A stretch of DNA of 64,000 bases from Clostridiales bacterium (GTDB taxonomy: Bacteria > Bacillota > Clostridia > Saccharofermentanales > DTU023). Where the stretch lies: contig SFGY01000001.1 of the NCBI GenBank assembly GCA_004556455.1, forward strand, positions 160,181 to 224,180, in the 5' to 3' direction. This document shows positions 5,561 through 63,709 of the stretch, in pieces. Position 1 is the first letter of the stretch; the number at the start of each line of letters is the position of its first letter. The translations under genes were made by a program, and so were the position numbers. A model generated the notes under the pieces. That model searched no databases and had not been told where the DNA came from. It saw only the letters and a program-made list of their open reading frames with translations.

Positions 5561-6709
5561 ATGGCTAGAAATAAAAATGGTAAATCCAAACAGCGTGTCG
5601 AACCCGTTAGTGTTGAGGACCGCAAGGCCGCTCTGGACATCGCCCTTGAACAGATTGAAAAACAATTCGGCAAGGGAGCGGTTCAGATCCTGGGTGATGA
5701 TACCCAGCCCCGCTATATTGAATCGATTTCCACCGGCGCGCTTTCACTGGATGTAGCTCTTGGAATTGGCGGTTTTCCTCGCGGCCGGGTCACCGAAATC
5801 TACGGACCCGAGTCTTCGGGCAAAACCACTCTGGCTCTGCATTGTATTGCTCAGGCTCAGAAAGCCAATGGCATCGCGGCATTCATTGATGCAGAACACG
5901 CCCTGGAACCGGCCTATGCAGAGAAAATCGGCGTTGATATCGACAACCTCATTATTTCTCAGCCGGATAATGGCGAGCAGGCGCTGGAGATTACAGAAGC
6001 TCTGGCGCGCAGCGGAGCTGTTGATCTTATCGTCGTCGACTCTGTGGCGGCGCTGGTACCCAAAGCAGAAATTGACGGCGAAATGGGCGAGTCGCTTCCC
6101 GGACAGCAGGCCCGTCTGATGTCCCAGGCTCTGCGTAAGTTAGTTGGTGTTCTTAATAAATCCCAGACAGCGGTCATCTTTATCAATCAGTTGCGTGAGA
6201 AGATCGGCGTCATGTTTGGCAGCCCGGAAACGACAACCGGTGGTCGTGCTCTGAAATTTTACTCTTCCGTACGTCTTGATGTGCGTCGCATAGAGACCCT
6301 GAAAAATGCGGATAAGGTGATCGGTTCACATACGAGAGTTCGTGTGGTCAAGAACAAGGTTGCACCACCTTTCCGCGAAGCTGAATTTGACATTCTCTAT
6401 GATGAAGGAATCTCTGATGCCGGCTGTATTCTTGATATGGGCGCCGATCTCAACTTTATCGAAAAGAGCGGTTCCTGGTATTCCTACGAAGGGGAACGAA
6501 TCGGTCAGGGTCGGGAAAATGCAAGACAGTGGCTGAAAGAACATCCGGAAGAAGCGCAGGTGGTGCGTGCCCGTATTCTTAATTACTACGAGCCGGAAGA
6601 AGAGGATGAGGAAGAAGAGGATCCTGCTCCTGCTGCAGGCAGCAAAGATTCTAAAAAAGCTGCGAAAAAAGAAGACGACGTGGACGAACTCCTGAACCTT
6701 GAACTCTAA
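5561..6709 (+). CDS. recA: Recombinase RecA
   Basis: [17 protein letters not shown], Walker [23 protein letters not shown] and [35 protein letters not shown]. It carries a long acidic/lysine-rich C-terminal tail. Confidence 0.98.
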
Positions 6710-42692: not shown

Positions 42693-43337
42693 CTAACGGT
42701 CCATGCGGGTGAGACGACCAGCGTCCATCTCGTGGACCGTATCACAGAGGAGCCTGATATCGGCGTTAGAATGCGTCGCAATGAGCAGGGTTTTTCCCTG
42801 CTCTTTTAATTGAAGAAAAAGCTGTCGCATATCGTTTTGAGAATGTCGATCAAGACCGCTCATGGGTTCGTCCAGAATAAGTAAATCCGGGTTCTCCATA
42901 ATGGCTTGAGCAATGCCAAGGCGCTGCTTCATGCCGAGTGAAAAATGACCCACGTATTTTTTGTCGTCAGGATCCAGACCAACGCATGTAATCGCACGCC
43001 GGATCTCCTCTAGCCCTGCCTTATTTTGCAGAGCAGCCAGCATTTTCAGGTTTTGGACGGCACTGTAACGAGGCAGGAATCCTGGATGCTCAATTATAAC
43101 GCCAATATCAGGGGGATAATCAAAATCTTTTCCCACGAACTTTCCTCGCACCTCAACACTTCCGGAATCAAGTTTAATTAAGCCGCAAATCGCTCGCAGC
43201 AAGACCGTTTTACCAGAACCATTTTCACCCACTATGCCGTGAATTTCACCTGCTTTCAGACTCATGTTGACGTGATCAAGAACTATTTGCCTGCGATAGG
43301 TTTTCACCGCATCCGTGATTTTGATGATGGTTTCCAT
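42693..43337 (-). CDS. ABC transporter ATP-binding protein, LanF/BcrA-like (E-loop)
   Basis: Walker A GENGSGKTV, signature FSLGMKQRL, Walker B LLILDEPMSGLD, H-loop ATHS. The Q-loop position reads IGVIIEHPGFLPRYSAVQNL. This is the last gene of the minus-strand operon. Confidence 0.9.
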   Translation of the reverse strand: METIIKITDAVKTYRRQIVLDHVNMSLKAGEIHGIVGENGSGKTVLLRAICGLIKLDSGSVEVRGKFVGKDFDYPPDIGVIIEHPGFLPRYSAVQNLKMLAALQNKAGLEEIRRAITCVGLDPDDKKYVGHFSLGMKQRLGIAQAIMENPDLLILDEPMSGLDRHSQNDMRQLFLQLKEQGKTLLIATHSNADIRLLCDTVHEMDAGRLTRMDR

Positions 43338-43356
43338 GATGAACGAACCCTTTCAT

Positions 43357-44289
43357 TTATTCTATGGATAAAAAATCTTTCCTGCGGAATAGCACATAGC
43401 ACAAAAAACTCAGAATCAGTACGAGCAGGAAAAGGACGATCATGGCCGTGTGCTCTGTAATCATTGGATTTCCAGGATCACGGCTCAGATTAAAGCTATA
43501 AAGCAACATCCAGCTTGCAGGGAAATATTTTCCCCACAGGGGATCGCCGAATGCCTGTAAAAATTCCGGAGATAAGGCGACAATGAATGCAATGAGACCG
43601 CCATAAGCTTTGTTTTTTTCCCCGACCAGTAGGGAAATAAGGAAAATCAGCAGTGCCACCATGAGATATTCCAGAAGTGAAATGACGGTGCAGATTTTCA
43701 TTGCCTGAAGAGGGCTTAAGTTTTGCACGATCGGGCGGGCAAACGCCATAAAACCAACGCCTGCAGAATTCGCCATCATGTAATCAGTACTTGTCAGGTG
43801 GATTAACTTTCCCCAATCAAAACTAAAATACAGGTTAGGGACGCAAAAAATGAGACTGAGCAGAACTGTAAAAATAAAATAGAGAAAAGAGCAAGCAAAG
43901 ATGAAGACCATCCGCGAGGCAAAAAAAGCCTTTTTGCCACAACGCAGAATCTCATCTACAGAGTTTCCGCTCAAAAAAGGCGCATCCGCAAAAAGCAGAA
44001 TGGAGCCTGCAAGGAGCTGACGATAATAGACAGAAGAAAAGATGGGATAGACCCACGGTGTCACTCGATAATTCATCAGCACGCAAGCCTTGCGGATGTT
44101 CTCATAACAGGGCCACCAGGTAATAAGGCAGAGGTAAATAATGAGCAGAGCGATTCGTCGATTCCCTTTCAGAGCCAGAAACTGATTTTTTACAAGGTAA
44201 ACAGTTCTGTAAGCCATACTTGTCTGCTTTGATGGAGACAGCAGAGATGGTGTTGAGGGCACAAATTGCTGGGCTGATTGACAAAGCAT
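43357..44289 (-). CDS. ABC-2 type permease (six predicted TM helices)
   Basis: The protein is hydrophobic throughout. GAAAGGGA lies 7 nt upstream of ATG 44289. ATG 44217 (MAYRTVYLVKNQF...) is an alternative. The gene is 19 nt upstream of the ATPase gene. Confidence 0.65.
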   Translation of the reverse strand: MLCQSAQQFVPSTPSLLSPSKQTSMAYRTVYLVKNQFLALKGNRRIALLIIYLCLITWWPCYENIRKACVLMNYRVTPWVYPIFSSVYYRQLLAGSILLFADAPFLSGNSVDEILRCGKKAFFASRMVFIFACSFLYFIFTVLLSLIFCVPNLYFSFDWGKLIHLTSTDYMMANSAGVGFMAFARPIVQNLSPLQAMKICTVISLLEYLMVALLIFLISLLVGEKNKAYGGLIAFIVALSPEFLQAFGDPLWGKYFPASWMLLYSFNLSRDPGNPMITEHTAMIVLFLLVLILSFLCYVLFRRKDFLSIE

Positions 44290-44303
44290 ACGGGAGTCCC
44301 TTT

Positions 44304-45131
44304 CTATCTTTTCTCTAGGATTTTGCGCAAGCGTAAAACAGCCATGGCTGAAAAAAAGGTCGCTACGAGCAATATTTCCATGACATTCAGGGTAAAAACG
44401 AGCCCGGCAGGGATGTCTTCTAAAACCCGTGCTCCTCCCGAAAATGCCAAAGCTGGTGCAAAAGCCCTGAATCCGAAAGCAAAGTATAAAACGCGGCTCA
44501 GATAGACATAGCCAAGATAAGTCGCACCGACCGTCATGTAAAGGTCATCAGTGAAAACAGTCGTCATCAGCGCAAAAAGCGACCAGACAGCACAATGCAG
44601 GGAATTATTTGCAATGATTAAAAGGTAATAAATAAAGGGGGATTCGATTTGCAATCTTCGAAACGGCTTGAGCAGGGCAAAAATTTCCGGCTCTGGCAAC
44701 ATACCTAAGTTAGCTTGATTCAAAGCGAATACAGTCAAGGTACAGAAACTGTAAGAGATAAAAGCCACGGCAAAGCTGCTCCAAAAACAGGCCAGACATT
44801 TAGACAGCATATAATCATCCGCCCTAATCCGCACAAAAATATAAGGGAGCAAACCACTCTTCTTATCTTCCTGGTATGACAGGGAATAGGCCAGACTGCT
44901 GATGGCTATACTACTTATGGATACCGCATTTTGTAAAAAACATGTTGAGTAGTAATTCAGGCCGATCGCCTGACCTCGCGTTATCATAAATTCACTGAAG
45001 AACAAGCCGAAACGACTGAGAAAAAAGAGAACGCAGGCGACAGCAAATGAAGTACTTAATATACTTTGCTGAAGTTGTTGTCGTATAATCGCAAATGGTT
45101 CTCTCTTCATTTGATCAGCACTTTTATTCAT
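44304..45131 (-). CDS. ABC-2 type permease (LanE/G-like size and topology)
   Basis: About 275 aa with six hydrophobic segments. ATG 45131 lies 1 nt after the lipoprotein stop with AAAGG 5 nt upstream. The ORF-track ATG at 45146 would overlap the upstream gene by 14 nt. Confidence 0.65.
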   Translation of the reverse strand: MNKSADQMKREPFAIIRQQLQQSILSTSFAVACVLFFLSRFGLFFSEFMITRGQAIGLNYYSTCFLQNAVSISSIAISSLAYSLSYQEDKKSGLLPYIFVRIRADDYMLSKCLACFWSSFAVAFISYSFCTLTVFALNQANLGMLPEPEIFALLKPFRRLQIESPFIYYLLIIANNSLHCAVWSLFALMTTVFTDDLYMTVGATYLGYVYLSRVLYFAFGFRAFAPALAFSGGARVLEDIPAGLVFTLNVMEILLVATFFSAMAVLRLRKILEKR

Positions 45132-45132
45132 A

Positions 45133-46326
45133 CTAACCTTTGCCATTTCCCGTAAATTGAGGAGTCGGAAGTGTTAACAGTTCGCCACTAACCGCATCAA
45201 AAATAATTTCTTTGAAAGAATCTCCTCCAAATTCACCGGCTTGTTCCGGCAGGAAGTGAATACAAAGAAGATAGGCCGGTGTAAATAAGACGTACTGGCT
45301 GTCCTCTTCGTTCAGATAACGTATTGGTGCATAAAGCAGTTCAAGATTAAACAGTTCCTGCGCCTTCGCGCCACGAACAAGTGGTAGATGACTCAGGTAT
45401 TCTTCAGCTTTAGCTCTGGCCTCCTCTGCGCTCATGATGGTTTGTGGCGTTCCTTCTTTGCGGATCAATTGCCAACGGTTAAATATTTCAAACTGTTCGG
45501 ATTGTTTTTCGCTTATGCGGTAATGAATCACGGCAGAAGGAGAGCCAAAGGACAGTTCATCATAAATGGGAAGACCATTGATCACTTGCATCGCTTCCAG
45601 ACCGTAGGCATCTGCCGGAGCGACTTCACCCGGGACATTAAGCAATGCAGATCCCTTTATGATCGTTTCAATATTGCGAATATAATAAGCCTCATAGCCC
45701 AGCGTGTCTAAGATTTTTTCTGTCCTGTGGATGAGTTCTGGCCCAGAAAGGAAGGCACATTCTTCCGGCGACTGCTCCTGTCCGCGGCGGTATGGACTGC
45801 GGGGCAGAAGAATAGAATCAATGGAATTGATGGTTAAATCGGAGGGGGCGACTTCCTCTGGAAAGGCTCTGAAGCTTAGCATAGACATTTTTTTCCCAAC
45901 GCTAAGTCGGATGTCCTTCCCGCCTTCAACGTAAAAAATGGAGCTGTTTTCTGAACTTTCCGGGCTCTTTTTCCAGACGTAATCCGGAAAAGCCGATTGT
46001 GCTTTGCTTTCATCAAAATAATCAAGGCTCAGCACAAGCTGTTCATAGGCTGATTGCGGCGTAATTCTCAGATGGGCATCTGCTGCATTCGCTTGCTTGA
46101 CATCCGGCGCACCAGAAGCCGAAGAACCTGAAGGTTCTACGTATTGAGGAACCTGCTCTGTATGGACTTCTTCGACACTAACCTTTAGTTCCGCCTGACG
46201 GGTCGGCGATTCATTGGCAATCGGCTGGATCTCCTCTGAACAAGAAACAAGGAACAAACACAAGGCAAGACAGACCACGCTTAGCAGTATGCAGCGTCCG
46301 AAATGTGTTAGATTTTTCTTTTTCAT
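45133..46326 (-). CDS. Lipoprotein of unknown function (397 aa)
   Basis: The signal peptide ends in the lipobox LFLVSC (MKKKNLTHFGRCILLSVVCLALCLFLVSCSEE). The mature part is soluble, and I recognise no motif in it. Confidence 0.7.
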   Translation of the reverse strand: MKKKNLTHFGRCILLSVVCLALCLFLVSCSEEIQPIANESPTRQAELKVSVEEVHTEQVPQYVEPSGSSASGAPDVKQANAADAHLRITPQSAYEQLVLSLDYFDESKAQSAFPDYVWKKSPESSENSSIFYVEGGKDIRLSVGKKMSMLSFRAFPEEVAPSDLTINSIDSILLPRSPYRRGQEQSPEECAFLSGPELIHRTEKILDTLGYEAYYIRNIETIIKGSALLNVPGEVAPADAYGLEAMQVINGLPIYDELSFGSPSAVIHYRISEKQSEQFEIFNRWQLIRKEGTPQTIMSAEEARAKAEEYLSHLPLVRGAKAQELFNLELLYAPIRYLNEEDSQYVLFTPAYLLCIHFLPEQAGEFGGDSFKEIIFDAVSGELLTLPTPQFTGNGKG

Positions 46327-46376
46327 AATTCAATACTCCATTTTGTGCTAGAAGATGTTGTCATAGTCCACAACTG

Positions 46377-46416
46377 CCGGATCGGGCACCTGGGAAAAGC
46401 CAAAGTGCCCGATCGG
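46377..46416 (-). other. Strong intercistronic RNA hairpin between the small-protein gene and the lipoprotein gene
   Basis: The arms CCGGATCGGGCAC (46377-46389) and GTGCCCGATCGG (46405-46416) give 12 bp with one bulged G and a 15-nt loop. No U-tract follows on the transcribed (minus) strand. Confidence 0.6.
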
Positions 46417-46426
46417 AGTTATAAGT

Positions 46427-46837
46427 TTACGGAATCCACAGTCCACTGACTTCAATTTTGCCGCCGGGAACAGTTGTGTACATGTTGGATGCAAACTGAT
46501 ATGAACTGCCCGTTTGTCCTTGCCCTGCAAGATATGAAAAAACAGTCATATACTGTGAACCAACAAAAATATCTACATTTAATTGCCTGAGCTGTGTAGC
46601 GTAGGATAAATCATCTGCGTTGCGAACGCGGAAATACACCTCATCTGTGTTGGGATCAAAGTAAGTGGCGTTGGTGACCTTACCACGTGCGTAGTTCAGA
46701 TTCTCAGTCTTTTCTACTGGTCCAGATAAAATTGGATTAGGACCATTGTACAAAGTAAAGCTAAACGCTGAATACGCAAATACCGGGACTGAAAAGATTA
46801 GCATTGCCACAAGGAGCAATAAACTGGCTTTTCTCAT
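46427..46837 (-). CDS. Small secreted protein of unknown function (136 aa precursor)
   Basis: Signal peptide MRKASLLLLVAMLIFSVPVFA/YS. The mature ~115 aa are rich in Tyr, Asn, Gly and Ser with no Cys. GGAGG lies 11 nt upstream of ATG 46837. The ORF-track start at 46855 is a TTG overlapping the SD. Confidence 0.6.
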   Translation of the reverse strand: MRKASLLLLVAMLIFSVPVFAYSAFSFTLYNGPNPILSGPVEKTENLNYARGKVTNATYFDPNTDEVYFRVRNADDLSYATQLRQLNVDIFVGSQYMTVFSYLAGQGQTGSSYQFASNMYTTVPGGKIEVSGLWIP

Positions 46838-47084
46838 GATGTTATTTACCTCCAAATTAATCAGAAAATCGCTGAAATGATGGCCTCCTACTCTCAGCAG
46901 AGCTAAGGCCCTTTTGGGGATTTGTCTAGACGCGCAACCTTGGAAACTGGATCTGTGCTCTGACAGTTATGATCTGCCTTGAGCGACGGGAATCATATTT
47001 GTTTTTCACCATACTGGCCAGGTCAGGAGAAAATCCTTGAATTGCATCAGCTTAAAAATCGTAATAGGTAGGTGTTGTATCAGA

Positions 47085-47519
47085 TCATTGATAATTTCTT
47101 GAATTAGAAATAACTGTGACAGTTTCAATAAAGTTGGAATCTTGGTAAACTTTTGCAATCAGCTTTGCTCGGTAGGTTTCCCCATAAGTTAGATTGAAGT
47201 GGGTCCTTTCTATAGTCAATCCATTGCCAGTCCATCGATCAACTTCTGACCAGAAACCAGAACTGTTTTGCTTTTCACATATGAGAGTAAGGTGGCAGCT
47301 ATAGCCTTGATAAAGGGAAACCATTCCGGAACAGATGGCACTACTTCCAGAAATGCGGCAATCTACAGCAGCAAGTTGTGTTCCAATAAAATAAACGCTA
47401 TTGTCACCTCCGTTTACGTGTAGGTCTGAAGTAGCTACTACCTTTTGGAGAAAGGTAAATGCAAATAGTAGCAGGAATAGTGTAGTCATATACACAATAA
47501 GGCATTTCTTTTTTTTCAT
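47085..47519 (-). CDS. Small secreted Cys-containing protein of unknown function (144 aa precursor)
   Basis: AAGGAGG lies 7 nt upstream of ATG 47519. The sequence begins MKKKKCLIVYMTTLFLLLFAFTFLQKVVA/TSD. The mature part has four Cys (..VDCRISGSSAICSG...GYSCHLTLICEK..). Confidence 0.6.
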   Translation of the reverse strand: MKKKKCLIVYMTTLFLLLFAFTFLQKVVATSDLHVNGGDNSVYFIGTQLAAVDCRISGSSAICSGMVSLYQGYSCHLTLICEKQNSSGFWSEVDRWTGNGLTIERTHFNLTYGETYRAKLIAKVYQDSNFIETVTVISNSRNYQ

Positions 47520-47556
47520 TTTCATACCTCCTTGGCGCTTAAGCCTTTCATTAATA

Positions 47557-47585
47557 AAAACGTACAAGGATGTTAAGGTGTTACA
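47557..47585 (-). promoter_or_regulatory. Candidate ECF-type promoter TGTAAC-17 nt-CGTTTT driving the minus-strand operon
   Basis: On the minus strand, TGTAAC corresponds to plus 47580-47585. A 17-nt spacer ACCTTAACATCCTTGTA follows, then CGTTTT (plus 47557-47562). This is about 35 nt upstream of the AAGGAGG/ATG of the first gene. It resembles the AAC ... CGT architecture of ECF promoters. Confidence 0.4.
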
Positions 47586-47587
47586 AT
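47579..47587 (+). promoter_or_regulatory. Candidate extended -10 element TGTTACAAT for the sigma-factor gene
   Basis: TGnTACAAT at 47579-47587 overlaps the candidate ECF -35 on the opposite strand. It ends only 4 nt before ATG 47592. Confidence 0.35.
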
Positions 47588-47591
47588 ATTT

Positions 47592-48209
47592 ATGAAAAAT
47601 TTCGAAAAGTTTTTGAGAGGTACGATGGTCATGTTTTTTCTACCAGCTATTGTGACACAGGCCGTTGGTTCGGAAGATGATTGGGCATTTATTCATAGGC
47701 TTTACCAGAATTATGCCATTTTTCTCTTCTTCCAAGCGAGAAAGTATGATGTACCCATGATGAATGCAGAAGATATTGTTCAGGAAACGATGTTGCGTGT
47801 CATTGAAAATCTGGAAAAATATCGTTCGCTTCCTTGTAACACCTGGCCAGCCTTATTCGTTTCTATTATCAGAAATATTGCCATTGATGCTTTGCGGAAA
47901 TCAGGACATGAAATATTGACCAGCGAAAATGATTTGCTTGAAAATACAGAAAAAGCAGAGCAGGTGCTTCAAAACGTTGAGGAACGTCTCAATCGGGAAA
48001 CTGAATATCAGGAGTTACGAGACGCCTTGAACCGTTTGGATCATAAAGAACTTGATATACTGCGATCAAAATATTTGCTGGAAGAATCGGATGCCACTAT
48101 TGGCAAAAGATATGGTCTAAAAGCCGCCAGCGTGCGTGTTTATCTGATGAGGATCCGATGTAAACTAAGAAAGATGATGGAGGAGGGAAGAAACAATGGC
48201 CAGGACTAA
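47592..48209 (+). CDS. ECF-type (group 4) sigma-70 family RNA polymerase sigma factor
   Basis: Region 2 is NAEDIVQETMLRVIENLEKYRS. Region 4 HTH is LDHKELDILRSKYLLEESDATIGKRYGLKAASVRVYLMRIRCKLRK. Given the promoter geometry, ATG 47625 (GAGAGG 4 nt upstream) is an alternative start. Confidence 0.9.
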   Translation: MKNFEKFLRGTMVMFFLPAIVTQAVGSEDDWAFIHRLYQNYAIFLFFQARKYDVPMMNAEDIVQETMLRVIENLEKYRSLPCNTWPALFVSIIRNIAIDALRKSGHEILTSENDLLENTEKAEQVLQNVEERLNRETEYQELRDALNRLDHKELDILRSKYLLEESDATIGKRYGLKAASVRVYLMRIRCKLRKMMEEGRNNGQD

Positions 48210-48936
48210 AGATACAAGTTGTGATTGGTATGACTTGAGACATGCCCTGCTTGAACAGGCAAAACGCGAGAGCGCTGAGCTTCTGGCTGAACTTCCCGAA
48301 GATCTGCGTCCCGTATCTCCAGATATAGATGCTAAGATACATACTGCCTTAAAGTGCGAATTAAGGAAAAAACACTTCCTTACTTTTGGCAGAAAGCTCT
48401 ATCCGGCCATTAGTAAAATTGCTCTTATCTTCCTTGCCTTATTTCTGATCTGTGTCCTGCTGGTCACACAGGTGTCTGCACTGCGCAAGAGGTTTTATGA
48501 CTGGATTATCAGTACACAAACAGATCACATTGAATTACGGGAGAGTAAAGAGCCATTAACGATAAATGAAAAGAATAATGAAGAACAGTATATCCGAGGT
48601 ATGGCATCTATTTATTTGACCTATGTACCTCACGATCTTACTTTGCATCATGAGGAAGTGACGGAGATTTCGCGAACCTTGGTGTACCAGGAGAGGGATA
48701 GTATTAATCATCGTTTTACCATCAATGCACTCAGAAAAAACAGTACTATTCAAATTGACAATAGTGCTCTGAAGGAAGTTGAGATCAAGGGAGGGGTACC
48801 TGCATACCTGACAGAGAACAAAGGTGAAATATCGCTCATTTGGTCATTGAATGATTATTTGATCACTGTAAGCAGCACACTAGGTGAAGAAGAAACAATG
48901 CGCATTGCTGAGGGTCTAAGTTTGGATTTGCGCTGA
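48196..48936 (+). CDS. Single-pass membrane anti-sigma factor candidate (DUF4367-like extracytoplasmic domain)
   Basis: It has a 14-nt overlap with the sigma gene. The protein has a ~75-aa cytoplasmic N-terminus and one TM (ISKIALIFLALFLICVLLV). The extracytoplasmic domain ends ..ISLIWSLNDYLITVSSTLGEEETMRIAEGLSL, a pattern I associate with DUF4367 anti-sigma proteins of Firmicutes. Confidence 0.75.
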   Translation: MARTKDTSCDWYDLRHALLEQAKRESAELLAELPEDLRPVSPDIDAKIHTALKCELRKKHFLTFGRKLYPAISKIALIFLALFLICVLLVTQVSALRKRFYDWIISTQTDHIELRESKEPLTINEKNNEEQYIRGMASIYLTYVPHDLTLHHEEVTEISRTLVYQERDSINHRFTINALRKNSTIQIDNSALKEVEIKGGVPAYLTENKGEISLIWSLNDYLITVSSTLGEEETMRIAEGLSLDLR

Positions 48937-55656: not shown

Positions 55657-56127
55657 ATGTTTATCCTACAAGCTGCCATCGCCGCCTTTATAGCTTCACT
55701 CGCTTATGCCATGGTTTTTGAACTGCGCGGAAAGACCTTATTTCTGACCAGCCTCGGCGGAGCCATTTCCTGGGTCGGCTATAAGCTCATCCTTCTCATA
55801 CCTGATGTACACTACTTGCTGCCCTTTTTGATTGGAACCATCCTCAGCTCCATTTATGCTGAAGTCATGGCCCGCCTGCTCAAAAAACCCGCAACTGTCT
55901 TTTTGATTGTCGCCATGCTGCCTCTGGTCCCGGGACAGGGCATCTACGAAACCATGGTCGCTTTTGTGACCGGAAACAACTCCCTGGGTGCCAGGATCGG
56001 AGGCCAGACTCTGGCCATTACGGCGACGCTGGCCATTGGCATGCTGATGACCTCCACCATATTTCGACTCGTGATGAAATTAAACCGGCATGTCAGTCAG
56101 TGGGAACACAGCAAGAAAATCCGCTGA
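55657..56127 (+). CDS. Threonine/serine exporter family protein, small subunit (DUF3815-type)
   Basis: 156 aa with four or five TM helices, including ..MLPLVPGQGIY.. It is adjacent to the DUF1212-type partner, as is usual for this pair. Confidence 0.8.
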   Translation: MFILQAAIAAFIASLAYAMVFELRGKTLFLTSLGGAISWVGYKLILLIPDVHYLLPFLIGTILSSIYAEVMARLLKKPATVFLIVAMLPLVPGQGIYETMVAFVTGNNSLGARIGGQTLAITATLAIGMLMTSTIFRLVMKLNRHVSQWEHSKKIR

Positions 56128-56177
56128 GCTCGATCTGGCTTAATAGCATAAAAATTCAGAGGAGGGGGGAACCGTAT

Positions 56178-56654
56178 ATGTTTAGAGACATACGCAAAAA
56201 GAAAAATAAAATGAGTGCAGAACTCACAAATAAACTTCTCAAAGAAACCAGGATAGGGATTCTCGCCGTAAATGGAGATGAAGGCTATCCTTATGCCTTG
56301 CCCATAAATTTTCTTTATGATGAGGCCAGACAAAAAATATTTTTTCACGGAGCCAAGAGGGGACATAAATATGATGCTTTAAAGCGATCTGAGAAAGTTT
56401 GCTTTAGTGTATATGGTCAGGAAATGGTTAAAGAAGAAGCATGGGCGCCCTTTGTGCAGAGCGCCGTCATTTTTGGCCGCTGTCATTTAATGGAAAACAC
56501 GGAGCAAGCGCTGGAAGTTTTGAAACAATTCGCGCTGAAATATTACCCGAACGAGAAAATGGTGATGGATGAAATAGACGCGTCGAGAAATGCAGTCCAA
56601 CTCTTTGAAATAGATATCGAACAACTCAGCGGCAAAGAAGTTCAGGAAAAATAA
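56178..56654 (+). CDS. Pyridoxamine 5'-phosphate oxidase family flavoprotein (NimA-like)
   Basis: LLKETRIGILAVNGDEGYPYALPINFLYDE...IFFHGAKRGHK is the split-barrel FMN-binding pattern. GGAGGGGGG precedes ATG 56178. Confidence 0.8.
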   Translation: MFRDIRKKKNKMSAELTNKLLKETRIGILAVNGDEGYPYALPINFLYDEARQKIFFHGAKRGHKYDALKRSEKVCFSVYGQEMVKEEAWAPFVQSAVIFGRCHLMENTEQALEVLKQFALKYYPNEKMVMDEIDASRNAVQLFEIDIEQLSGKEVQEK

Positions 56655-56686
56655 GTGTACGATTTAAACATCGAATCCGTCGTGAG

Positions 56687-58849
56687 GTGAGGCTCGTGAT
56701 TTTCGCAGAATGGGAAAAACTCGGCAGAAAGAACATCTTATTCCTGACCTTTATATGCCTCCTGCTTGCCTGCTGGTTTCTGAGCGAAATCCTCTACCTC
56801 ACCCCACAGGACAAAGCTTATCGCAGCGGGATATCCCGTAACAAAGAACTTGAAGAGCGCTATTCCCGATTGAGAGAGCAGTGGGTTAATCGTGAGAAAC
56901 AAGCAGGGGCGAAGGGGAACAGTGTTCTTTTCCAGAACACTCCAATGGAGCGAAGACGTTTGCAAGACGAGCAAGCAGCCTATAAAACGCTTCTTGAAAA
57001 TGTTGCAGAAATACATCCGGATTATCGCTGGCAGGGTATCCTGGCCAGTCCTTTTCCTTTTATTCTACAAATACTCCTGGCATTTTTTCTCTGTGAACGA
57101 CTTTTTTTACGGGAACGCGGAAATGGCTTTATTTGCCTGATCAGGAGCAGTGCCTGCAGACCTGTTAAACGCTTTGTCCTGCGTGCAGTGTTTTTATTCT
57201 TTCTGTTCATTTTTCTGAGCCTCATCACTTATCTCTTTCCATTATTGATCGAGAGAGTGATGAGAGGTCCACTTAATAATATTAAGGCACAAGCTCTGCC
57301 TGCTTTGATGGATTTAGACCGGAATATGAGTAAAAACGAGCTGTTTTCTCTGCTCTTCTGGACCAGAAGCATTGCTTCGCTGGGCTTTGCGCTGAGCTTC
57401 ACCTTTGTGAATATCTTCGCTCGCAATGTTTTGCTTTCCGCCTTTCTGCTTTTCCTTTACGGAAGCGCTTCCTTTATTTTACTGCGCAGCATCTCCCTCA
57501 ATTCGCGTTATCTCATTTGGCGCTACCTTAATCCGGCCTGGATTTTTTTCTTTTTCTCTGAGCTTCCTCAGAATGTCCGCTTGTGCATGTTTGACAGAGT
57601 GATCCCTTCCGAAATTCTGGCCTTTGCTTTCTGGATCGGGATGGATATCCTGTTGCTTTGGGGAATCTTCTGTTGTTATGAAAAAGATCCGCTTCATAAG
57701 AGAAGACGATTTTTTCGGGCACTCGTTTACAGCCGGAAATCTTTTTATAAAGCGAGCGGCTGTACTCAGGCAGGAAAGAGGTGGAAAAAGCTTTTACCGC
57801 GCATGGGCGAGGGGAGAAGGATCGCATTTTCCGCCTCGATGATCTGTTTCATCATTTGTTTTATAGCTGTTTTTGCCTATCAGTCGATGAGCTACACACA
57901 TCTGGCTTCGCCGCAGGAAAAGAGTCTGGAAAGCCTCTATGCAGAATATGGAGGTCATATTATTGGAGAAAGAAAAGCCCGGCTTGAAAAAATCGACCGG
58001 GAATATGACAGCAGGCAGGATGAGATTGAAGCTCTGCGAGCAAAGCAGGAGACTGAAAAGGATATGACAAAGCGGGAAGAAATTTTTCTTGAAATAGAGA
58101 CGCTGGTCGATCAAAGTCTGCCTTCGGCAGATTTCTATCCCATCCTTGAGCGCTATCGGCAACTTAAGAATAAGGGGGGAGAATATTTAGTCTATGAAAA
58201 ACCATATCAGCTTCTACTTGGACTGGAAAACAGTTCTCTGCAAGCCCAGGATTATCTTCTTTATACAGCCGCTCTGGTACTGATTCTGCTGATCGCCTTT
58301 TCCCCTGATTTTGAAAGTTCCCACTTGGAATTGTATCGCTGCCTGAGTGGAGGCCGAGAAAAATTTATCCGCTCAAAACTTCACATCCTTGCCGCTATCA
58401 TTGTCTTTCTTAATGCGGTTATTTTTCTTTCTCGCCTTTACAAATTGAGGCGTGTATTCCCGATGCAGACCCTTGCGCCCCATTTGATCAACATATCTGA
58501 TCATCTTACCCTGCCCATCAGCACAGGCTGCGCATTGATATTGCAGGCTCTTTTTTCCTGTCTGCTGGGCTATACTTTTTCACTGTTCATCCTGCTTACG
58601 TTCTTCCAGAGAAATCGGCTGATGAGCCTTGCGTTTGGCTTTATCCTGATGCTTTCGCCATTCTTGCTCTATCGTCTGGGGGCAACGCACATATCCCTGT
58701 TTTCGCTGCTCTGCGGGAGCGCCATGGAAGAGCCGAAGAGGGCCGGTATCATGCTTGCACTTCTCCTTCTGATAATGATTCTTCTGCGCTGCTGGCTTAT
58801 TATTTCCTGGAGGGAGGGCGGAGTGAAGCTCCTAAACAAAAATGTCTGA
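56687..58849 (+). CDS. Fused double ABC-2 type permease (720 aa; two tandem TM1 / coiled soluble domain / multi-TM modules)
   Basis: Module 1 begins MRLVIFAEWEKLGRKNILFLTFICLLL, then an Arg/Glu-rich segment, then ..RERGNGFICLIRSSACRPVKRF.. and TM helices. Module 2 starts near nt 57,800 with RIAFSASMICFIICFIAVF, then a coiled segment, then ..FESSHLELYRCLSGGREKFIRSK.. and TM helices. Confidence 0.7.
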   Translation: MRLVIFAEWEKLGRKNILFLTFICLLLACWFLSEILYLTPQDKAYRSGISRNKELEERYSRLREQWVNREKQAGAKGNSVLFQNTPMERRRLQDEQAAYKTLLENVAEIHPDYRWQGILASPFPFILQILLAFFLCERLFLRERGNGFICLIRSSACRPVKRFVLRAVFLFFLFIFLSLITYLFPLLIERVMRGPLNNIKAQALPALMDLDRNMSKNELFSLLFWTRSIASLGFALSFTFVNIFARNVLLSAFLLFLYGSASFILLRSISLNSRYLIWRYLNPAWIFFFFSELPQNVRLCMFDRVIPSEILAFAFWIGMDILLLWGIFCCYEKDPLHKRRRFFRALVYSRKSFYKASGCTQAGKRWKKLLPRMGEGRRIAFSASMICFIICFIAVFAYQSMSYTHLASPQEKSLESLYAEYGGHIIGERKARLEKIDREYDSRQDEIEALRAKQETEKDMTKREEIFLEIETLVDQSLPSADFYPILERYRQLKNKGGEYLVYEKPYQLLLGLENSSLQAQDYLLYTAALVLILLIAFSPDFESSHLELYRCLSGGREKFIRSKLHILAAIIVFLNAVIFLSRLYKLRRVFPMQTLAPHLINISDHLTLPISTGCALILQALFSCLLGYTFSLFILLTFFQRNRLMSLAFGFILMLSPFLLYRLGATHISLFSLLCGSAMEEPKRAGIMLALLLLIMILLRCWLIISWREGGVKLLNKNV

Positions 58850-59711
58850 ACTTAAAATCGTTCAATTAACGCAATGCTACGGTGCAGTCAGAGCATTAAA
58901 CGCCATTCAGCTGACACTCCATCCCGGCATCACCGGTATGATGGGCAACAACGGAGCGGGAAAATCCACGCTGCTTCGTGTGCTGGCAAGCCTGCTCAGG
59001 CCCACTTCCGGTAAGGTTTATCTTAACGGTGAGGATATCTTCAAAATGGGAAAAAAGTACCGCCGCCTTCTCGGCTATATGCCCCAGCAACAGCAGGCCT
59101 ATCGAGGCTTGAGTGTTTATCAGTTTTTGGAGTACATCTCAGTCCTGAAGGAACTGTCGCGCTCAAAAGCCTTAGCCCGTATTGAAGAATTGCTGCAGCA
59201 ATTTCATCTTGAGGAGCAGCAGCACAAATTCTGTGAAGACCTTTCCGGAGGTATGCGCCAGCGCCTCCTGCTCGCAGCAGCCCTGCTCAACGACCCGCTG
59301 ATCCTGATTCTTGATGAGCCGACAGCTGGTCTTGATCCTATTGAACGAGCCAGTCTCCGGGAAGCTCTGGTTCAATTGGCTCCCGATAAAATCAGCATTC
59401 TGGCAACCCATATCGTCTCAGATATTGAATTTATTGCTCAAAGACTTGTTTTCATGGAAAAAGGTGATATTAAAGCAGAAGGAGAACAGGGCAAGCTGCT
59501 CTCATCCTGCCCCTGCTTTATCTCCTCAAGGAGTGAAGCTGAACTTCGCAGGCTGGACCCTCAGTTAAAGCTGGTGAACATCTCCTACCAGAATGGTCAG
59601 AGACTCTGCCGCTTTATTTCACACTCACAGCGCCTGCTGCCAGATCAGGATATTCATAGAGTTCCAGCTGGACTGGATGATCTTTACCTTGATCTTCTCT
59701 CCGCTAAATAA
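58842..59711 (+). CDS. ABC transporter ATP-binding protein (canonical Q-loop)
   Basis: Walker A GNNGAGKST, Q-loop GYMPQQQ, signature LSGGMRQRL, Walker B ILILDEPTAGLD. It has an 8-nt overlap (ATGTCTGA) with the permease gene. Confidence 0.92.
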   Translation: MSELKIVQLTQCYGAVRALNAIQLTLHPGITGMMGNNGAGKSTLLRVLASLLRPTSGKVYLNGEDIFKMGKKYRRLLGYMPQQQQAYRGLSVYQFLEYISVLKELSRSKALARIEELLQQFHLEEQQHKFCEDLSGGMRQRLLLAAALLNDPLILILDEPTAGLDPIERASLREALVQLAPDKISILATHIVSDIEFIAQRLVFMEKGDIKAEGEQGKLLSSCPCFISSRSEAELRRLDPQLKLVNISYQNGQRLCRFISHSQRLLPDQDIHRVPAGLDDLYLDLLSAK

Positions 59712-59770
59712 AAATATGTTTTATCAGAGCAATGATAAAAAAAAGAAAATTGGAATACTTTTTGATATGA

Positions 59771-59799
59771 TTGACTTATTATTATTTATGATATATTAT
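59771..59799 (+). promoter_or_regulatory. Candidate sigma-A promoter TTGACT-17 nt-TATTAT with a ~200-nt leader
   Basis: TTGACT at 59771-59776, a 17-nt spacer, and TATTAT at 59794-59799. The leader contains a 7-bp hairpin GCATCTG-TAAGA-CAGATGC (59843-59861). It also has two SD-like GAGGAGG motifs (59811-59834) with no usable start codon. Confidence 0.45.
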
Positions 59800-60006
59800 A
59801 AATCTTAATAGAAGAGGAGGTGATTGCGAGGAGGTTAAAGACGCATCTGTAAGACAGATGCAGAAGTTAATTGGTCTTAGAGGAATGATTTTCTCACGTA
59901 TTCCAGAAGCCTGTGAAAAACAAGTTTGTTGTCAAAATTATTATTTGAAGAAACGGACACTGCTTTGAAAGCCTGTTATTTCAGACAGGAGGAAGTGAGG
60001 ATTATT

Positions 60007-60372
60007 ATGAAAAGACTTATCATTGTTATTTCTAGCCTATTAGTGTTTTTCCTTTTGACCGTTACGGTTTGCGCGGCTTATCAAAATTTTTATGTTGCCG
60101 GTGGCAATTGCATCGCCCAATTAACCAAATACCCTGGTAAGGCCATGGCTTCGACTATCGGGGCTACTCCTGATTACTATTGTTATGCAGAAGTGAAGCT
60201 GTATTATGTATGCAATGGGAAATATAACGATTTAACGGAATCCCGAGGAGACTATCGTGAAGTTTTCGTCACAGCTGTTGCACCCTGCTCATCTGGAGCT
60301 CGTCAGGCGCATTCTACTCACCGCTGCTACGCACCAAATGGACAGAACAATGGCGTGAATCTGAGTGAATAA
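60007..60372 (+). CDS. Small secreted Cys-containing protein, paralogue 1 (121 aa precursor), unknown family
   Basis: Signal peptide MKRLIIVISSLLVFFLLTVTVCAA/YQNFY. Roughly half of aligned residues are identical to the ORF at 61843 (AAYQNFY.AGG..IAQL.KY, TPD.YCYAEV, SRG.YREVF.TAVAP, HRC). GTGAGG lies 6 nt before ATG 60007. Confidence 0.65.
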   Translation: MKRLIIVISSLLVFFLLTVTVCAAYQNFYVAGGNCIAQLTKYPGKAMASTIGATPDYYCYAEVKLYYVCNGKYNDLTESRGDYREVFVTAVAPCSSGARQAHSTHRCYAPNGQNNGVNLSE

Positions 60373-60420
60373 TCTGACCTCGAGACAAGAAAGGGAAGAG
60401 CGAGGGGAGGGCGCTTAGAT

Positions 60421-61737
60421 ATGAAAAGCCGAAGACCATGTCGACTGTTTTTTTCTTTTTTTTGTATAGTCCTTCTTGTTTTAATCCTCTTGAGCGCCTG
60501 TTCCCAGGATGACATAAAGAAAGCTGAACTCCCTGAGATTTCCAAATCTCAGGGAGAAGATGAGCTTGAGCCATCAGCTCCCTCACTTATTCCGGGAACC
60601 GATTTGGAGGTAAGTGGAGCGTATTCGCTCTGCGGGAGTTTGGGAAAACATGCCGCTGGAAGCGCTGCCGGGTTGTATTTTATTCTCCGTGGAAAGTTGT
60701 TTTTCTGGGATTATTCCCAAAAACTATCTCTTGAGCTTGCGAACCTCGATACACGAAATGGCCAATATTATTTTCTCTGGGATCATGCAAATAGGTCAAG
60801 CAAGCCAGGGGAGTCTGTTCTGTGGAAAAGATACCTTCCTTCCAGTTCTCTTGTGCTTTATAACGATCGCTTATACTACGCTCAGGAAACCAGCAGCAGC
60901 AGCGGTGAAACATCTTATCAGCTTGTGAGCCTGAATCTGCAGGGTCAGGATGCAAAAAACGAATTTGAGCTTCCCGAAGAAATCGCGACGTTTTTCCTGA
61001 TGGATGGGGGTAAGACACTTCTTTATCAAGTGCGGCCCCAGCAGCATGATCAGAAAAATGCAGCTGATGTGTCCCGTCTTTATTATTGGTCGCGCGATGA
61101 GAAAGCTCCGTCTTTACTGTCGGAAACTTTATTTCCATATAGTTTTTACTGTAATGAGGCAAAATGTTTCTTTTCAGCACTCAGCAAAGATGAAGATTTG
61201 TCGACCTTTTTTCAGCCGTATATGCTCTATACCTGGGATGTTCATAGCAAAGAGATAAAAAAAGAAAAGATCAAGATAGGCAGTAGTGATTTTTGGCCCC
61301 AAGGTGATCACCTGGTCAGCAGCGATGCAAGAAAAGGTCTTGAAGGACAGCCTGAAATTGAATATTGCTACGATGATTTACGGCGTATCACGATCTGTGC
61401 GCCAGATGTTGATCAAAGGAAAGGGGGGGCTTGGTTCTATGGTGCTTCGGAGAATTTTACCTATGTCTCAGAGATAAAAGATTTCAGCATTGATGCCAGT
61501 GAACAGACGCATAAATATACTATCCTTGACTCCAGTGGGAAAGACGTCAGGCACTTTTCCTTTACACTCCCTGATCCGAATAGTTATGGTGAAGGCTGTG
61601 TGGGATCGTACATTTTTTTCACCCGACATTTTGCTCAAGAACAGAATACGAATTTTTATCTCCTTGACGTCACAGCGGAGAAAATTGAAGCGATCCCACT
61701 GCTTCCCGAAGATTACTTTGAATCTGTCGAAAGGTGA
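60421..61737 (+). CDS. Lipoprotein of unknown function (438 aa), probably beta-rich
   Basis: Lipobox LLSAC (..FCIVLLVLILLSACSQDD). Recurrent aromatic/Gly-rich segments (LYF.., LYYAQE.., LLYQV.., LYYWS.., IFFTR.., FYLLD) suggest repeated beta-blades. I recognise no motif with confidence. Confidence 0.7.
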   Translation: MKSRRPCRLFFSFFCIVLLVLILLSACSQDDIKKAELPEISKSQGEDELEPSAPSLIPGTDLEVSGAYSLCGSLGKHAAGSAAGLYFILRGKLFFWDYSQKLSLELANLDTRNGQYYFLWDHANRSSKPGESVLWKRYLPSSSLVLYNDRLYYAQETSSSSGETSYQLVSLNLQGQDAKNEFELPEEIATFFLMDGGKTLLYQVRPQQHDQKNAADVSRLYYWSRDEKAPSLLSETLFPYSFYCNEAKCFFSALSKDEDLSTFFQPYMLYTWDVHSKEIKKEKIKIGSSDFWPQGDHLVSSDARKGLEGQPEIEYCYDDLRRITICAPDVDQRKGGAWFYGASENFTYVSEIKDFSIDASEQTHKYTILDSSGKDVRHFSFTLPDPNSYGEGCVGSYIFFTRHFAQEQNTNFYLLDVTAEKIEAIPLLPEDYFESVER

Positions 61738-61842
61738 TCTTTAAGCAGATTTTTATGACATTAAGCGCCAGGCTGTATTTATCGTAAATGCAAAGATAAA
61801 TTCAGATGAGAAGACATAAAATAGCGTGAAAAGAGGCTGACT

Positions 61843-62235
61843 ATGAAAAAACGAATATTAATATTTTCTTTGCTTTTAGTCTTAATGCTCATGACCGTCA
61901 CGGTTAACGCAGCATATCAGAATTTTTATATTGCAGGGGGAACGGGAATTGCCCAGTTAAGCAAGTATAAAAACAAAGTTTCAGCCTCAACAGTAGGCCC
62001 AACGCCGGATTTCTACTGCTATGCGGAAGTGACCTTAAGCTATTTTTGCCCTGATGGCAATTCTGGAGCCGGTGAGCTTAAAGAAATCACCGTATCTCGA
62101 GGCGCTTACCGGGAGGTATTCATTACCGCTGTTGCGCCTCCAGGAACAATTGTTGTTAAAGCAGATTCAAAACACCGCTGCGACTATAAAAAAACCGGCC
62201 AAAGCAACCATATCGAGCTGCACGAGCCATATTGA
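61843..62235 (+). CDS. Small secreted Cys-containing protein, paralogue 2 (130 aa precursor), unknown family
   Basis: Signal peptide MKKRILIFSLLLVLMLMTVTVNAA/YQNFY. It is a paralogue of the ORF at 60007. AAGAGG lies 6 nt before the ATG. Confidence 0.65.
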   Translation: MKKRILIFSLLLVLMLMTVTVNAAYQNFYIAGGTGIAQLSKYKNKVSASTVGPTPDFYCYAEVTLSYFCPDGNSGAGELKEITVSRGAYREVFITAVAPPGTIVVKADSKHRCDYKKTGQSNHIELHEPY

Positions 62236-62405
62236 AGGCAGTCAAAAATTGCAGCAGACAGCGCAAAAGTTCAATATTAGTTAAATGTTATTAAAAAAGG
62301 CGATGTTGACATGATGGTCAAGTATGGCTTTGACATCAACAGGGAAGGCCACAGGAAACGCTTCCACAATAAAGTTTCATGATTTCATTTAGTTCGGTTA
62401 GGATA

Positions 62406-62441
62406 TCCAACTTCGCAAAATAATAATTTTGCGAAGTTGGA
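62406..62441. other. Perfect 14-15 bp hairpin (CCAACTTCGCAAAA / TTTTGCGAAGTTGG) between convergent genes; possible bidirectional terminator
   Basis: The arms lie at 62407-62420 and 62427-62440 with a short AT loop. There is no flanking U-tract outside the stem on either strand. Confidence 0.5.
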
Positions 62442-62661
62442 AAGAGGGGAAAACAGAAATTGACCTTTCGATAAAGTTTATGTCGAGAATTAAAGTTTAA
62501 GTTCAAAATTTGCCTGCTCATGTTTTAGTAAGCTTTAGTCTGAAATTTGACAAACAAATACTTATAGTCCGAAACATTAAAACTTAATTCCAAAACATTT
62601 TTCAGGCGAAATAAAACATCTCTTTAGTTTTTGCTGTTCTTATTCCAGTTGTTTCAGCTCA

Positions 62662-63426
62662 TTATCTGTTATCTGAACTCTGGCTTTCACCGGCATTTTG
62701 ATAAACGTCGCTTCCTGTGATGCGTTGGATTTCACCCATGTCGCCAAGGTTAATGAACTTGGCAAGCAAGAGCGCAAAAAGCATAATCAGAATCAGAGTG
62801 ACGATAATTTTGCGCAGTATAATCTGACGTTGTTCTTCTTTGAATTTTTTCGTAATTTTACTGATCGTTGTATAGGCGCTTAATTTATAAATTTTGGCCC
62901 CGTATTGTTTTTCACTTTCCCAGGGCTTTTTTTCACTGCGTCTGTTTTTGCCGAGTTCTTTTCTTTTGATCACTGTATGGGCTATGCTTTCACGCTTCAG
63001 GCTTCGATCTGATTTCTTTTTAATGACTGTACGTTCGAGCAAAGGATTTCCTTTCGATCCTGAGCCCTTTAGCGGAATGCGAATTTGTGTTTCACCCATC
63101 GTTGCGCCTGTGGCAACGCGCGAATTCTTCATGGATGGTCTGGCAGGAGGCTGAGCGGCTTTTCTGCTCTCGGGAAAATCAAGTGCAGGTTTTATTTTAT
63201 TCTGCTCTAATGCTGAGGGCTTTTTAGACAATGGCTGATGCAAGGGATCATGAGCAGCGTTTGAGAAATTACGGGACATCCTTTCTGGAGCCGCTGTAAG
63301 CTGATCACGCGAGGTCGCGTGGGAATTAATGGGCGGCCTCATCTTGGTCGCAGTCTCAGGCCGGTCCTGAGCGTTGCTCGCATGGCCTGAGGGACGGCCC
63401 GCTTTTTGATCCTGAAATTCATTCAT
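62662..63426 (-). CDS. Hypothetical membrane-anchored protein (low-complexity Pro/Ser/Lys/Arg-rich N-terminus, one C-terminal TM)
   Basis: AGGTGA lies 7 nt before ATG 63426 (MNEFQDQKAGRP...). The TM is IIVTLILIMLFALLLAKFI, followed by a ~30-aa tail. I recognise no family. Confidence 0.55.
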   Translation of the reverse strand: MNEFQDQKAGRPSGHASNAQDRPETATKMRPPINSHATSRDQLTAAPERMSRNFSNAAHDPLHQPLSKKPSALEQNKIKPALDFPESRKAAQPPARPSMKNSRVATGATMGETQIRIPLKGSGSKGNPLLERTVIKKKSDRSLKRESIAHTVIKRKELGKNRRSEKKPWESEKQYGAKIYKLSAYTTISKITKKFKEEQRQIILRKIIVTLILIMLFALLLAKFINLGDMGEIQRITGSDVYQNAGESQSSDNR

Positions 63427-63709
63427 CGAAAATTCACCTGTAAAGCCTTGCAGCAAAACCGAAAGGCTGTCAACATTTTTTCTTATTATAACTTGTTTTC
63501 AGCCAGTTTATGAAGCAAGCGCCTGTACACAATATCTATTTAGTCTATGTAGTTCATATCATAAAATCAGGCTTGTACTGTCACAGGACAAGATCATGCA
63601 TAAAGCCCATCGCAGGTTCTAATAGCACGCAAAATCCAATCGCACTCTTCAATAAGCGTTATAATAGGAGCAACAGAATTGAAATGATAACGTAAACGTT
63701 TACAGAATC

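Follow-up and report, generated by a model that had tools for sequence, protein, structure and literature searches.

A narrowly distributed cassette of small secreted proteins, a lipoprotein and an ABC transporter in uncultured gut Clostridiales

The 64,000-nucleotide (nt) stretch of Clostridiales DNA analysed here (the window) carries, at 56687-62235, a cassette of four components that travel together: one or two small Sec-secreted proteins, a lipoprotein, a permease with 12 transmembrane helices and two ectodomains, and the ABC-2-type ATPase of an ATP-binding cassette (ABC) transporter (Table 1). An earlier note on this DNA had taken as the unit a trio of genes, the open reading frames (ORFs) at 60007 (P1) and 61843 (P2) and the lipoprotein gene that they flank. 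These three genes do adjoin, with the sizes and order described, and the ABC transporter genes lie directly upstream, as the note also stated; they belong to the unit, which has four components and not three. It is known from a single narrow clade only, made up of a few uncultured gut Clostridiales. Our leading interpretation, to which we give a probability of roughly one in three, is that it could be a module in the style of lactococcin 972 (Lcn972), in which polymorphic Sec-secreted proteins are paired with self-protection by the lipoprotein and ABC transporter.

Three diverged lineages have the cassette, each with its own gene order and its own neighbourhood. In the window's clade (lineage i; L001 and L011-L039 in our numbering of loci), genes for ThrE and ThrE2 are followed by permease, ATPase, P1, lipoprotein and P2, and then by a gene for a 249-amino-acid (aa) protein on the minus strand and by Hfq, MiaA, MutL and MutS. 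In lineage ii (L010 and L007), an extracytoplasmic function (ECF) sigma factor and a DUF4367 anti-sigma factor precede lipoprotein, permease and ATPase; in L010 the regulatory pair, at 259-1580, is directly upstream of the lipoprotein gene. Lineage iii (L002-L006, L008 and L009, all metagenome-assembled genomes (MAGs) labelled 'Clostridiales bacterium') has a TetR gene on the minus strand, divergent from the cassette, then a 121-aa small protein, lipoprotein, permease and ATPase, and then adenine deaminase. The permease gene is always adjacent to those of the lipoprotein and ATPase, and junctions within the cassette are short or overlapping, the window's ATPase start overlapping the permease stop by 8 nt. 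That such junctions recur in three gene orders at three chromosomal sites argues strongly that the four components are functionally coupled. The earlier note had made its proposal depend on synteny in other genomes: other loci of the window's clade repeat the order P1-lipoprotein-P2, and a distant lineage, at another place in the chromosome, again has a small-protein gene ahead of a lipoprotein gene.

Identity between lineages falls from 71-79% for the ATPase through 50-56% for the permease and 42-52% for the lipoprotein to 41-50% for the small protein. Compared with the window, the lipoprotein and permease are 52% and 56% identical in lineage ii; for lineage iii the figures are 42% (lipoprotein), 50% (permease), 71% (ATPase) and, against P1, 50% (small protein). 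There is no small gene in lineage ii on the 6.8-kb contig of L010; downstream of the cassette on that contig, a convergent ORF (6311-6676) encodes an unrelated, acidic, cytoplasmic protein of 121 aa.

When 1.84 billion cluster representatives were searched exhaustively with an HMMER profile, the small-protein family came to only two clusters, and nothing beyond the family itself was recovered. In word-indexed searches, with clusters counted at 90% identity, P2 has only three clusters of homologues (all 89-94% identical to P2), and so do the permease (97%, 56% and 50%) and the lipoprotein (92%, 52% and 42%). A scan of GTDB genomes matched only two 'Clostridiales bacterium' MAGs, of lineage iii, and in NCBI the relatives carry no annotation other than 'hypothetical protein'; P1 itself is seen on 38 contigs. 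The permease, lipoprotein and small-protein families are orphans with the same very narrow distribution; the ATPase is excepted from orphan status. This distribution bears on the view that the small proteins and lipoprotein are no more than variable proteins of the cell surface, for instance adhesins or targets of phages or immune systems, which merely sit beside an unrelated ABC exporter. That view would suit the immunoglobulin (Ig)/fibronectin type III (FN3)-like sandwich fold of the small-protein model, the faster evolution of the exported components and the presence/absence polymorphism described below. However, the same orphan permease and ATPase adjoin these genes in all three lineages despite the differing orders and sites, the junctions imply operons, the three families are equally narrow in distribution, and Pfam finds no LPXTG motif, cell-wall-binding repeat or adhesin domain. 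We think it unlikely.

P1 and P2 are true paralogues, judged by their alignment: BLASTP gives 71 identities in 128 positions (55%, expectation value (E) 4e-40), far above chance, with a 6-residue insertion in P2 relative to P1. The earlier note had estimated by eye that about half the positions are identical, and had listed an insertion in P2, three conserved Cys and several shared blocks; all of these are borne out, the aligned blocks being TVTV(C/N)AAYQNFY(V/I)AGG, IAQL.KY, TPD(Y/F)YCYAEV, SRG.YREVF.TAVAP and HRC. The Cys residues of P1 are 22 (within the signal peptide), 35, 59, 69, 94 and 107, and those of P2 are 59, 69 and 113, so that C59, C69 and the aligned pair P1 C107/P2 C113 are common to both. 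A C59-C69 disulfide is unlikely, because both residues face the core on the same predicted 12-residue strand. C35 and C94 may form a pair in P1, since they co-occur and are both missing from P2.

Both proteins are predicted to be exported by Sec. Signal peptides and cleavage motifs were judged by reading the sequences: an MKR or MKK n-region, a hydrophobic core and a V-x-A motif are conserved in all homologues, and P1 is predicted to be cleaved after VCA at residue 23. The mature proteins would have 98 aa (P1) and 107 aa (P2). An AlphaFold2 model of P1, built on a six-sequence alignment, is confident (predicted local distance difference test (pLDDT) 85.4, predicted template modelling score (pTM) 0.72) and all-beta, with eight strands following the signal helix, so mature P1 is predicted to be an all-beta sandwich. 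A Foldseek search of the PDB with this model gave no match with E < 1e-3 and only generic Ig/FN3-type sandwiches, with a best TM-score of 0.50; the fold types include CrdA (TM-score 0.50), FN3, ApaG and arrestin-like domains, and the BFVD viral library gave two unnamed matches (TM-score 0.51). We rejected the reading of P1 as a CrdA copper chaperone: the fold likeness is non-specific and P1 has no Met/His-rich site.

The families screened were those of Pfam, NCBIfam, PHROGs and PADLOC, together with PDB sequences, and diverged homologues and profiles were also used as queries. For P1 and P2 these searches returned nothing significant. The earlier note could not assign the small proteins to any family, and this stands: the sequence searches are empty, and the structural matches are generic sandwiches with TM-scores of about 0.5 or less.

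The same screens gave no match for the lipoprotein. It has the lipobox LSAC that had been noted before (MKSRR...LLSAC, lipidated Cys27 by motif), followed by an acidic tether of about 40 aa and a beta-rich body. The earlier suggestion of a beta-propeller-like fold finds weak backing. Foldseek gave 53 PDB matches with E <= 1e-3 and all of the best 50 contain beta-propellers; the TM-scores are about 0.2-0.35, typically near 0.3, and the AlphaFold model is poor (pLDDT 46.7). We searched the sequence for internal or blade repeats with hhalign and rejected them, as none are detectable. A beta-propeller is thus plausible as a low-confidence model.

The permease, too, has no match in the screened collections, and the ABC2_membrane families of Pfam have none at E <= 10 to any of four permease homologues. 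Hydropathy and charge indicate two six-helix halves. In each, a charged ectodomain comes after the first helix (at about residues 36-117 and 398-523), and the cytoplasmic linker between the halves is very basic (residues 329-378; 16 Lys or Arg in 50 residues). Its likeness to ABC-2 permeases is only topological, a large loop after the first helix of each half, and an internal duplication of the halves was rejected, since hhalign detects none. The C-terminal part of ectodomain 2 ranks with the most conserved stretches of the permease. In the relatives the permease is called from an ATG corresponding to 56696, which gives 717 aa.

By sequence the ATPase belongs to the DrrA/GldA group, a resemblance at the level of the subfamily. 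Its best NCBIfam families are TIGR03522 (GldA; 2.7e-52, 178 bits) and TIGR01188 (DrrA; 1.4e-51, 176 bits), both below their curated cut-offs. TIGR03740 (lantibiotic protection) scores 6e-40 (137 bits; cut-off 309.75). TIGR03608 (L_ocin_972_ABC) is not among the 25 best families, and all listed scores are far below its 254.85-bit cut-off.

These properties also bear on a role in nutrient or cofactor capture, in which a propeller lipoprotein and sandwich proteins would bind a scarce ligand for ABC import, by analogy with BtuG-type lipoproteins and vitamin B12. The low-confidence lipoprotein model does match the B12-binding propeller BtuK1 (9s6c, Foldseek E 2e-5), and the ATPase scores 1.7e-47 against TIGR03864, a family that we take to belong to an ABC-2-like system with an associated secreted beta-propeller protein. 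However, with a pLDDT of 46.7 such fold matches are unreliable, and 162 bits compare with a TIGR03864 cut-off of 302. The cassette has no type I or II importer permease and no substrate-binding-protein signature, its leader holds no riboswitch or other Rfam element, and allelic dimorphism and gene loss are unexpected for a capture protein. We regard capture as very improbable.

Within the window's clade we compared 18 distinct loci that span the whole region. Permease, ATPase and lipoprotein are intact in 18 of 18, P1 is deleted in five and P2 is disrupted in three, so either small paralogue can be lost alone. No locus has lost both (0 of 18); this is uninformative, because only about 0.8 double losses are expected by chance. 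The P1 deletions are of at least three kinds, with 23, 15 or no codons remaining, and the promoter and leader are gone as well; what is left, at most the last 23 codons of P1, lies ahead of the lipoprotein ribosome-binding site. In the strains with P1 deleted (L001, 8330-8485), about 160 nt of AT-rich sequence replace promoter, leader and P1. P2 lacks its first 55 codons in L017 and L023 (5' truncation), and in L018 it has a 1-nt frameshift, for which an assembly error is also possible. In lineage iii, the sole small gene of the MAG L008 is a pseudogene with a replaced 5' end and a 92-nt internal deletion, and the rest of its cassette is intact. The small genes are the variable, expendable part of the cassette, and the transporter and lipoprotein the constant part.

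Where P1 is present it occurs as at least three alleles: A is 99-100% identical to the P1 of the window, B is 80-81% identical, and C, at 84%, combines A-like with B-like segments as a mosaic. When the window is compared with L011, leader and signal peptide agree at about 99% of positions, yet mature P1 has a synonymous divergence (dS) of 0.39 and a nonsynonymous divergence (dN) of 0.11, compared with a dS of 0.04-0.08 for permease, ATPase, lipoprotein and P2. This abrupt change within the gene points to recombination breakpoints inside P1. The variable residues alternate along a predicted hairpin at 58-83 (strands 58-69 and 72-83), at positions 62/64/66/68/70 and 73/75/76/78/80/82, and so make up a face opposite the conserved C59-V63-L65-Y67-C69 side; the substitutions E62Q, K64T, E78Q, R80Q and D82S turn a charged surface into a neutral polar one. 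The lipoprotein differs by 0-9 residues among strains with P1-A and by 25-35 between P1-A and P1-B strains, and between L016 and L021 the island of divergence consists of P1 and lipoprotein only, with nearly identical flanks. Lipoprotein alleles thus track P1 alleles, as linkage between adjacent genes would lead one to expect, among loci that were chosen by identical ATPase sequence and so carry an ascertainment bias.

Lcn972 is made as a 91-aa Sec-dependent prepeptide, from which a 66-aa unmodified mature protein that binds lipid II is released (PMC7248182, PMC8538875), and behind lcn972 the operon has orf2-orf3, which encode a putative immunity ABC transporter (PMC4055356). In this and in Lcn972-like class IId clusters, genes for a large polytopic membrane protein and an ABC ATPase follow and are thought to provide immunity (PMC4055356; PMC7248182). 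Like lcn972-orf2-orf3, the cassette unites in an operon the genes for a small Sec-dependent protein, here a predicted beta-sandwich, for a large polytopic membrane protein and for an ABC ATPase; P1 and P2 resemble the Lcn972 structural protein in being small and Sec-dependent, and a narrow host range is common to both. Unlike Lcn972, mature P1 and P2 are about 50% longer and contain Cys, the permease has 12 transmembrane helices and two ectodomains, there is a lipoprotein of 438 aa besides, the small gene has been duplicated, and the cassette lies in a syntenic chromosomal region and not on a plasmid. P1 and P2 have no match at E <= 1 to the Lcn972 families PF09683 and TIGR01653 in Pfam and NCBIfam, and in the same collections the permease does not match TIGR01654 (bacteriocin-associated integral membrane protein). 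Lcn972 has what we take to be a beta-sandwich fold (PDB 2LGN); hhalign of the small-protein family profile against the 2LGN sequence gave a probability of 0.2, and we reject a direct relationship. By analogy, the cassette may work like an Lcn972 module, of whose family it is not a member. The families are new, and the architecture resembles known bacteriocin-immunity and antimicrobial peptide (AMP)-defence ABC modules.

As an Lcn972-style module, the cassette would work as follows. Sec would export P1 and P2, and cleavage after V-x-A would free them to act, as polymorphic proteins, on the envelopes of relatives that compete with the producer. On the producer's side, the lipoprotein (its allele follows that of P1) would bind or block them at the membrane surface, and the ABC transporter would supply ATP-driven clearance, as is proposed for orf2-orf3 with Lcn972 and for LanFEG/LanI with lantibiotics. 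The lipoprotein would then be an allele-matched immunity component added to what an Lcn972 operon has, and strains that lack a small gene and keep lipoprotein and transporter would be immune non-producers. Support comes from the co-occurrence in three lineages, the export signals, the Lcn972-like architecture and the narrow distribution; from the duplication, mosaicism and loss of the small genes beside an intact transporter and lipoprotein; and from the linkage of P1 and lipoprotein alleles.

Several observations weigh against this interpretation. Neither the small proteins nor their partners resemble Lcn972 or the families of its partners in sequence. The mature proteins, of 98 and 107 aa, exceed the size of class II bacteriocins, and by count of residues they are roughly charge-neutral. 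With a dN/dS of about 0.3 for both P1 and P2, positive selection is not demonstrated, and P2, unlike P1, is well conserved (93-100% within the clade). The retention of at least one paralogue at every locus, for all that chance predicts so few double losses, also fits a required subunit. The linkage of P1 and lipoprotein alleles could reflect adjacency alone, in loci picked by their ATPase, and the polymorphism could come instead from phage or immune pressure on surface proteins.

A close rival, which we consider possible, is that the cassette detoxifies AMPs or relieves envelope stress, with the small proteins and lipoprotein as accessory or sensing subunits that would dock on the permease ectodomains, in analogy to YxeA/YsaD with BceAB and to LanI/LanH with LanFEG. 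YsaD, a secreted small protein of the YxeA family, is transcribed together with an ABC transporter for AMP resistance; resistance does not require it, and it modulates signalling (PMC7438565). Like BceAB with YxeA or YsaD, the cassette encodes a small protein with a signal peptide alongside an ABC transporter, and in the case of YsaD the small protein can be dispensed with (PMC7438565). The regulators of the other lineages, the ECF sigma/DUF4367 anti-sigma pair ahead of the L010 cassette and the divergent TetR of lineage iii, are typical of stress and efflux genes. The conserved C-terminal part of ectodomain 2 suggests a docking surface, at least one small paralogue is kept in all 18 complete loci, and the ATPase falls into the exporter-type DrrA/GldA/LanF group.

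The cassette nevertheless departs from these systems. The small proteins have no match at E <= 1 to TIGR01655/DUF1093, the permease, with its 12 or so helices and two ectodomains where a BceB-type permease has 10 helices and one large ectodomain, has no FtsX domain and is not of the BceB type, and no histidine kinase or response regulator is found next to the cassette in any of the three lineages, one of which has the ECF sigma/anti-sigma pair instead of a two-component system. Like LanFEG with LanI, the cassette pairs an ABC-2-type exporter with a membrane-anchored lipoprotein at the outer face of the membrane. Unlike LanFEG, its permease is a single 720-aa protein and not two of about 250 aa, and its ATPase is below the TIGR03740 cut-off. 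Unlike LanI, its lipoprotein is unrelated in sequence, and known LanI proteins are far smaller. No lantibiotic biosynthesis genes are among the annotated neighbouring genes, most of the window being left unannotated. Deeply diverged mosaic alleles of P1 in near-identical backgrounds are unexpected for a housekeeping accessory subunit, and the decay of the sole small gene of L008 beside an otherwise intact cassette, as well as the L010 contig with no small gene, speak against a detoxification module.

Table 1. Features of the cassette and of the related locus at 42693-48936, with positions in the window
Feature	Position	Strand	Basis or remark
Polytopic permease, 720 aa, ~12 transmembrane helices	56687-58849	+	ORF; hydropathy/charge analysis
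ABC ATPase, 289 aa, ABC-2 (DrrA/GldA-like) type	58842-59711	+	PF00005, 8e-32
Sigma-70-like promoter element TTGACT-17-TATTAT	59771-59799	+	10/12 positions match
P1 leader, ~207 nt	59800-60006	+	sequence reading
P1, small Sec-secreted protein, 121 aa	60007-60372	+	ORF; predicted signal peptide; AlphaFold model
Lipoprotein, 438 aa, lipobox L-S-A-C	60421-61737	+	ORF; homologues; AlphaFold; Foldseek
P2, small Sec-secreted paralogue, 130 aa	61843-62235	+	ORF; alignment to P1
Perfect 14-bp inverted repeat CCAACTTCGCAAAA-TAATAA-TTTTGCGAAGTTGG, 6-nt loop	62407-62440		between P2 and convergent gene
LanF-like ABC ATPase	42693-43337		best family TIGR03740 (lantibiotic protection)
Polytopic protein, 310 aa	43357-44289		
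Polytopic protein, 280 aa	44304-45146		
Lipoprotein, 397 aa, lipobox LVSC	45133-46326		
Small secreted protein, 142 aa	46427-46855		divergent from sigma/anti-sigma
Small secreted protein, 160 aa	47085-47567		divergent from sigma/anti-sigma
ECF sigma factor	47592-48209		
DUF4367 anti-sigma factor	48196-48936		

The promoter-like element that the earlier note had placed ahead of P1 is present, and is one of the three best promoter matches within 56000-63600. It is invariant in four close relatives and is lost along with P1 in L001. The leader had been called unusually long, and its length, hairpin and two GAGGAGG motifs are as described. Since no Rfam family matches it and it folds with ordinary energy (z = -1.8), we rejected a riboswitch or other structured RNA; the leaders of relatives, 98-99% identical, are too similar for covariation. 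The GAGGAGG(T) copies lie at 59814-59820 and 59828-59834, the 7-bp hairpin GCATCTG/CAGATGC at 59843-59861, and the P1 Shine-Dalgarno sequence AGGAGGAAGTGAGG just 5' of the ATG at 60007. The two copies form a direct repeat, GAGGAGGT-N6-GAGGAGGT (59814-59834), which is invariant in close relatives and could be an operator or a ribosome standby site. A leader peptide behind the orphan motifs was rejected, since neither copy has a usable downstream start codon at workable spacing. The inverted repeat 3' of P2 could be a terminator; it has no T-run and was not called by a terminator scan.

The genes around the cassette vary as well. Between those for ThrE2 and the permease, the window has a Pyridox_ox_2 gene (56190-56654; PNPOx-like, 5e-18) that is present in L016 and L018-L022 and absent from L001, L011, L017 and L026. 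An extra ORF of 67-68 aa is called just 3' of P2 in L011 (10837-11043), L026 (8467-8670), L027, L028 and L033, and is uncalled in the window. The convergent gene (62662-63456, minus strand) encodes a 264-aa protein with a basic, Pro/Ser-rich and probably disordered N-terminal region and a C-terminal transmembrane segment; a faint MacP-like match (E 0.002) is below the cut-off. In L001 and L011 its counterparts share only about 78% identity with it, against 97-99% for nearby housekeeping genes, and the counterparts have 247-257 aa depending on the strain.

A second locus of the window, at 42693-48936, is probably the 'locus B' whose layout the earlier note had found echoed here. The echo holds for the architecture: locus B likewise combines small secreted proteins, two in number, with a lipoprotein, permeases and an ABC ATPase, all encoded divergently from an ECF sigma and DUF4367 anti-sigma pair such as the L010 orthologue of the cassette also has. 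Unlike the cassette, it has two permeases and not a single large one. Its small proteins, lipoprotein and polytopic proteins have no match in Pfam or NCBIfam, and homology with the cassette was rejected, since sequence similarity is confined to the ATPases (29% identical). Orthology of the regulators was also rejected: the sigma factor of L010 is only 33% identical to that of locus B and the anti-sigma factors have no similarity, so that only the kind of regulator is the same. The likeness of the two loci hints at a wider class of modules in this organism. A bolder extension, which we find doubtful, is that P1 and P2 would be the first members of a family of protein antagonists, Sec-dependent, polymorphic in their alleles and about 100 aa long, with a propeller lipoprotein for cognate immunity and a two-ectodomain ABC transporter as a second layer of protection, and that together with locus B and L010 they would represent a general Clostridial class, so far undescribed, of modules that join small secreted proteins to an ABC transporter and a lipoprotein under LolA-like anti-sigma control.

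Three of the four components are without a family assignment and are confined to a handful of uncultured gut Clostridiales; the general impact of the cassette is moderate given this narrow distribution and a function deduced by analogy. If P1 and P2 are secreted antagonists with lipoprotein/ABC immunity, they would be a new bacteriocin-like family with a new immunity architecture in abundant uncultured commensals, and their allele and presence/absence polymorphism would bear on competition between strains in the gut. If they are accessory subunits instead, the cassette would represent a transporter of a new type for defending the envelope, an ABC system with two ectodomains and tethered partner proteins.

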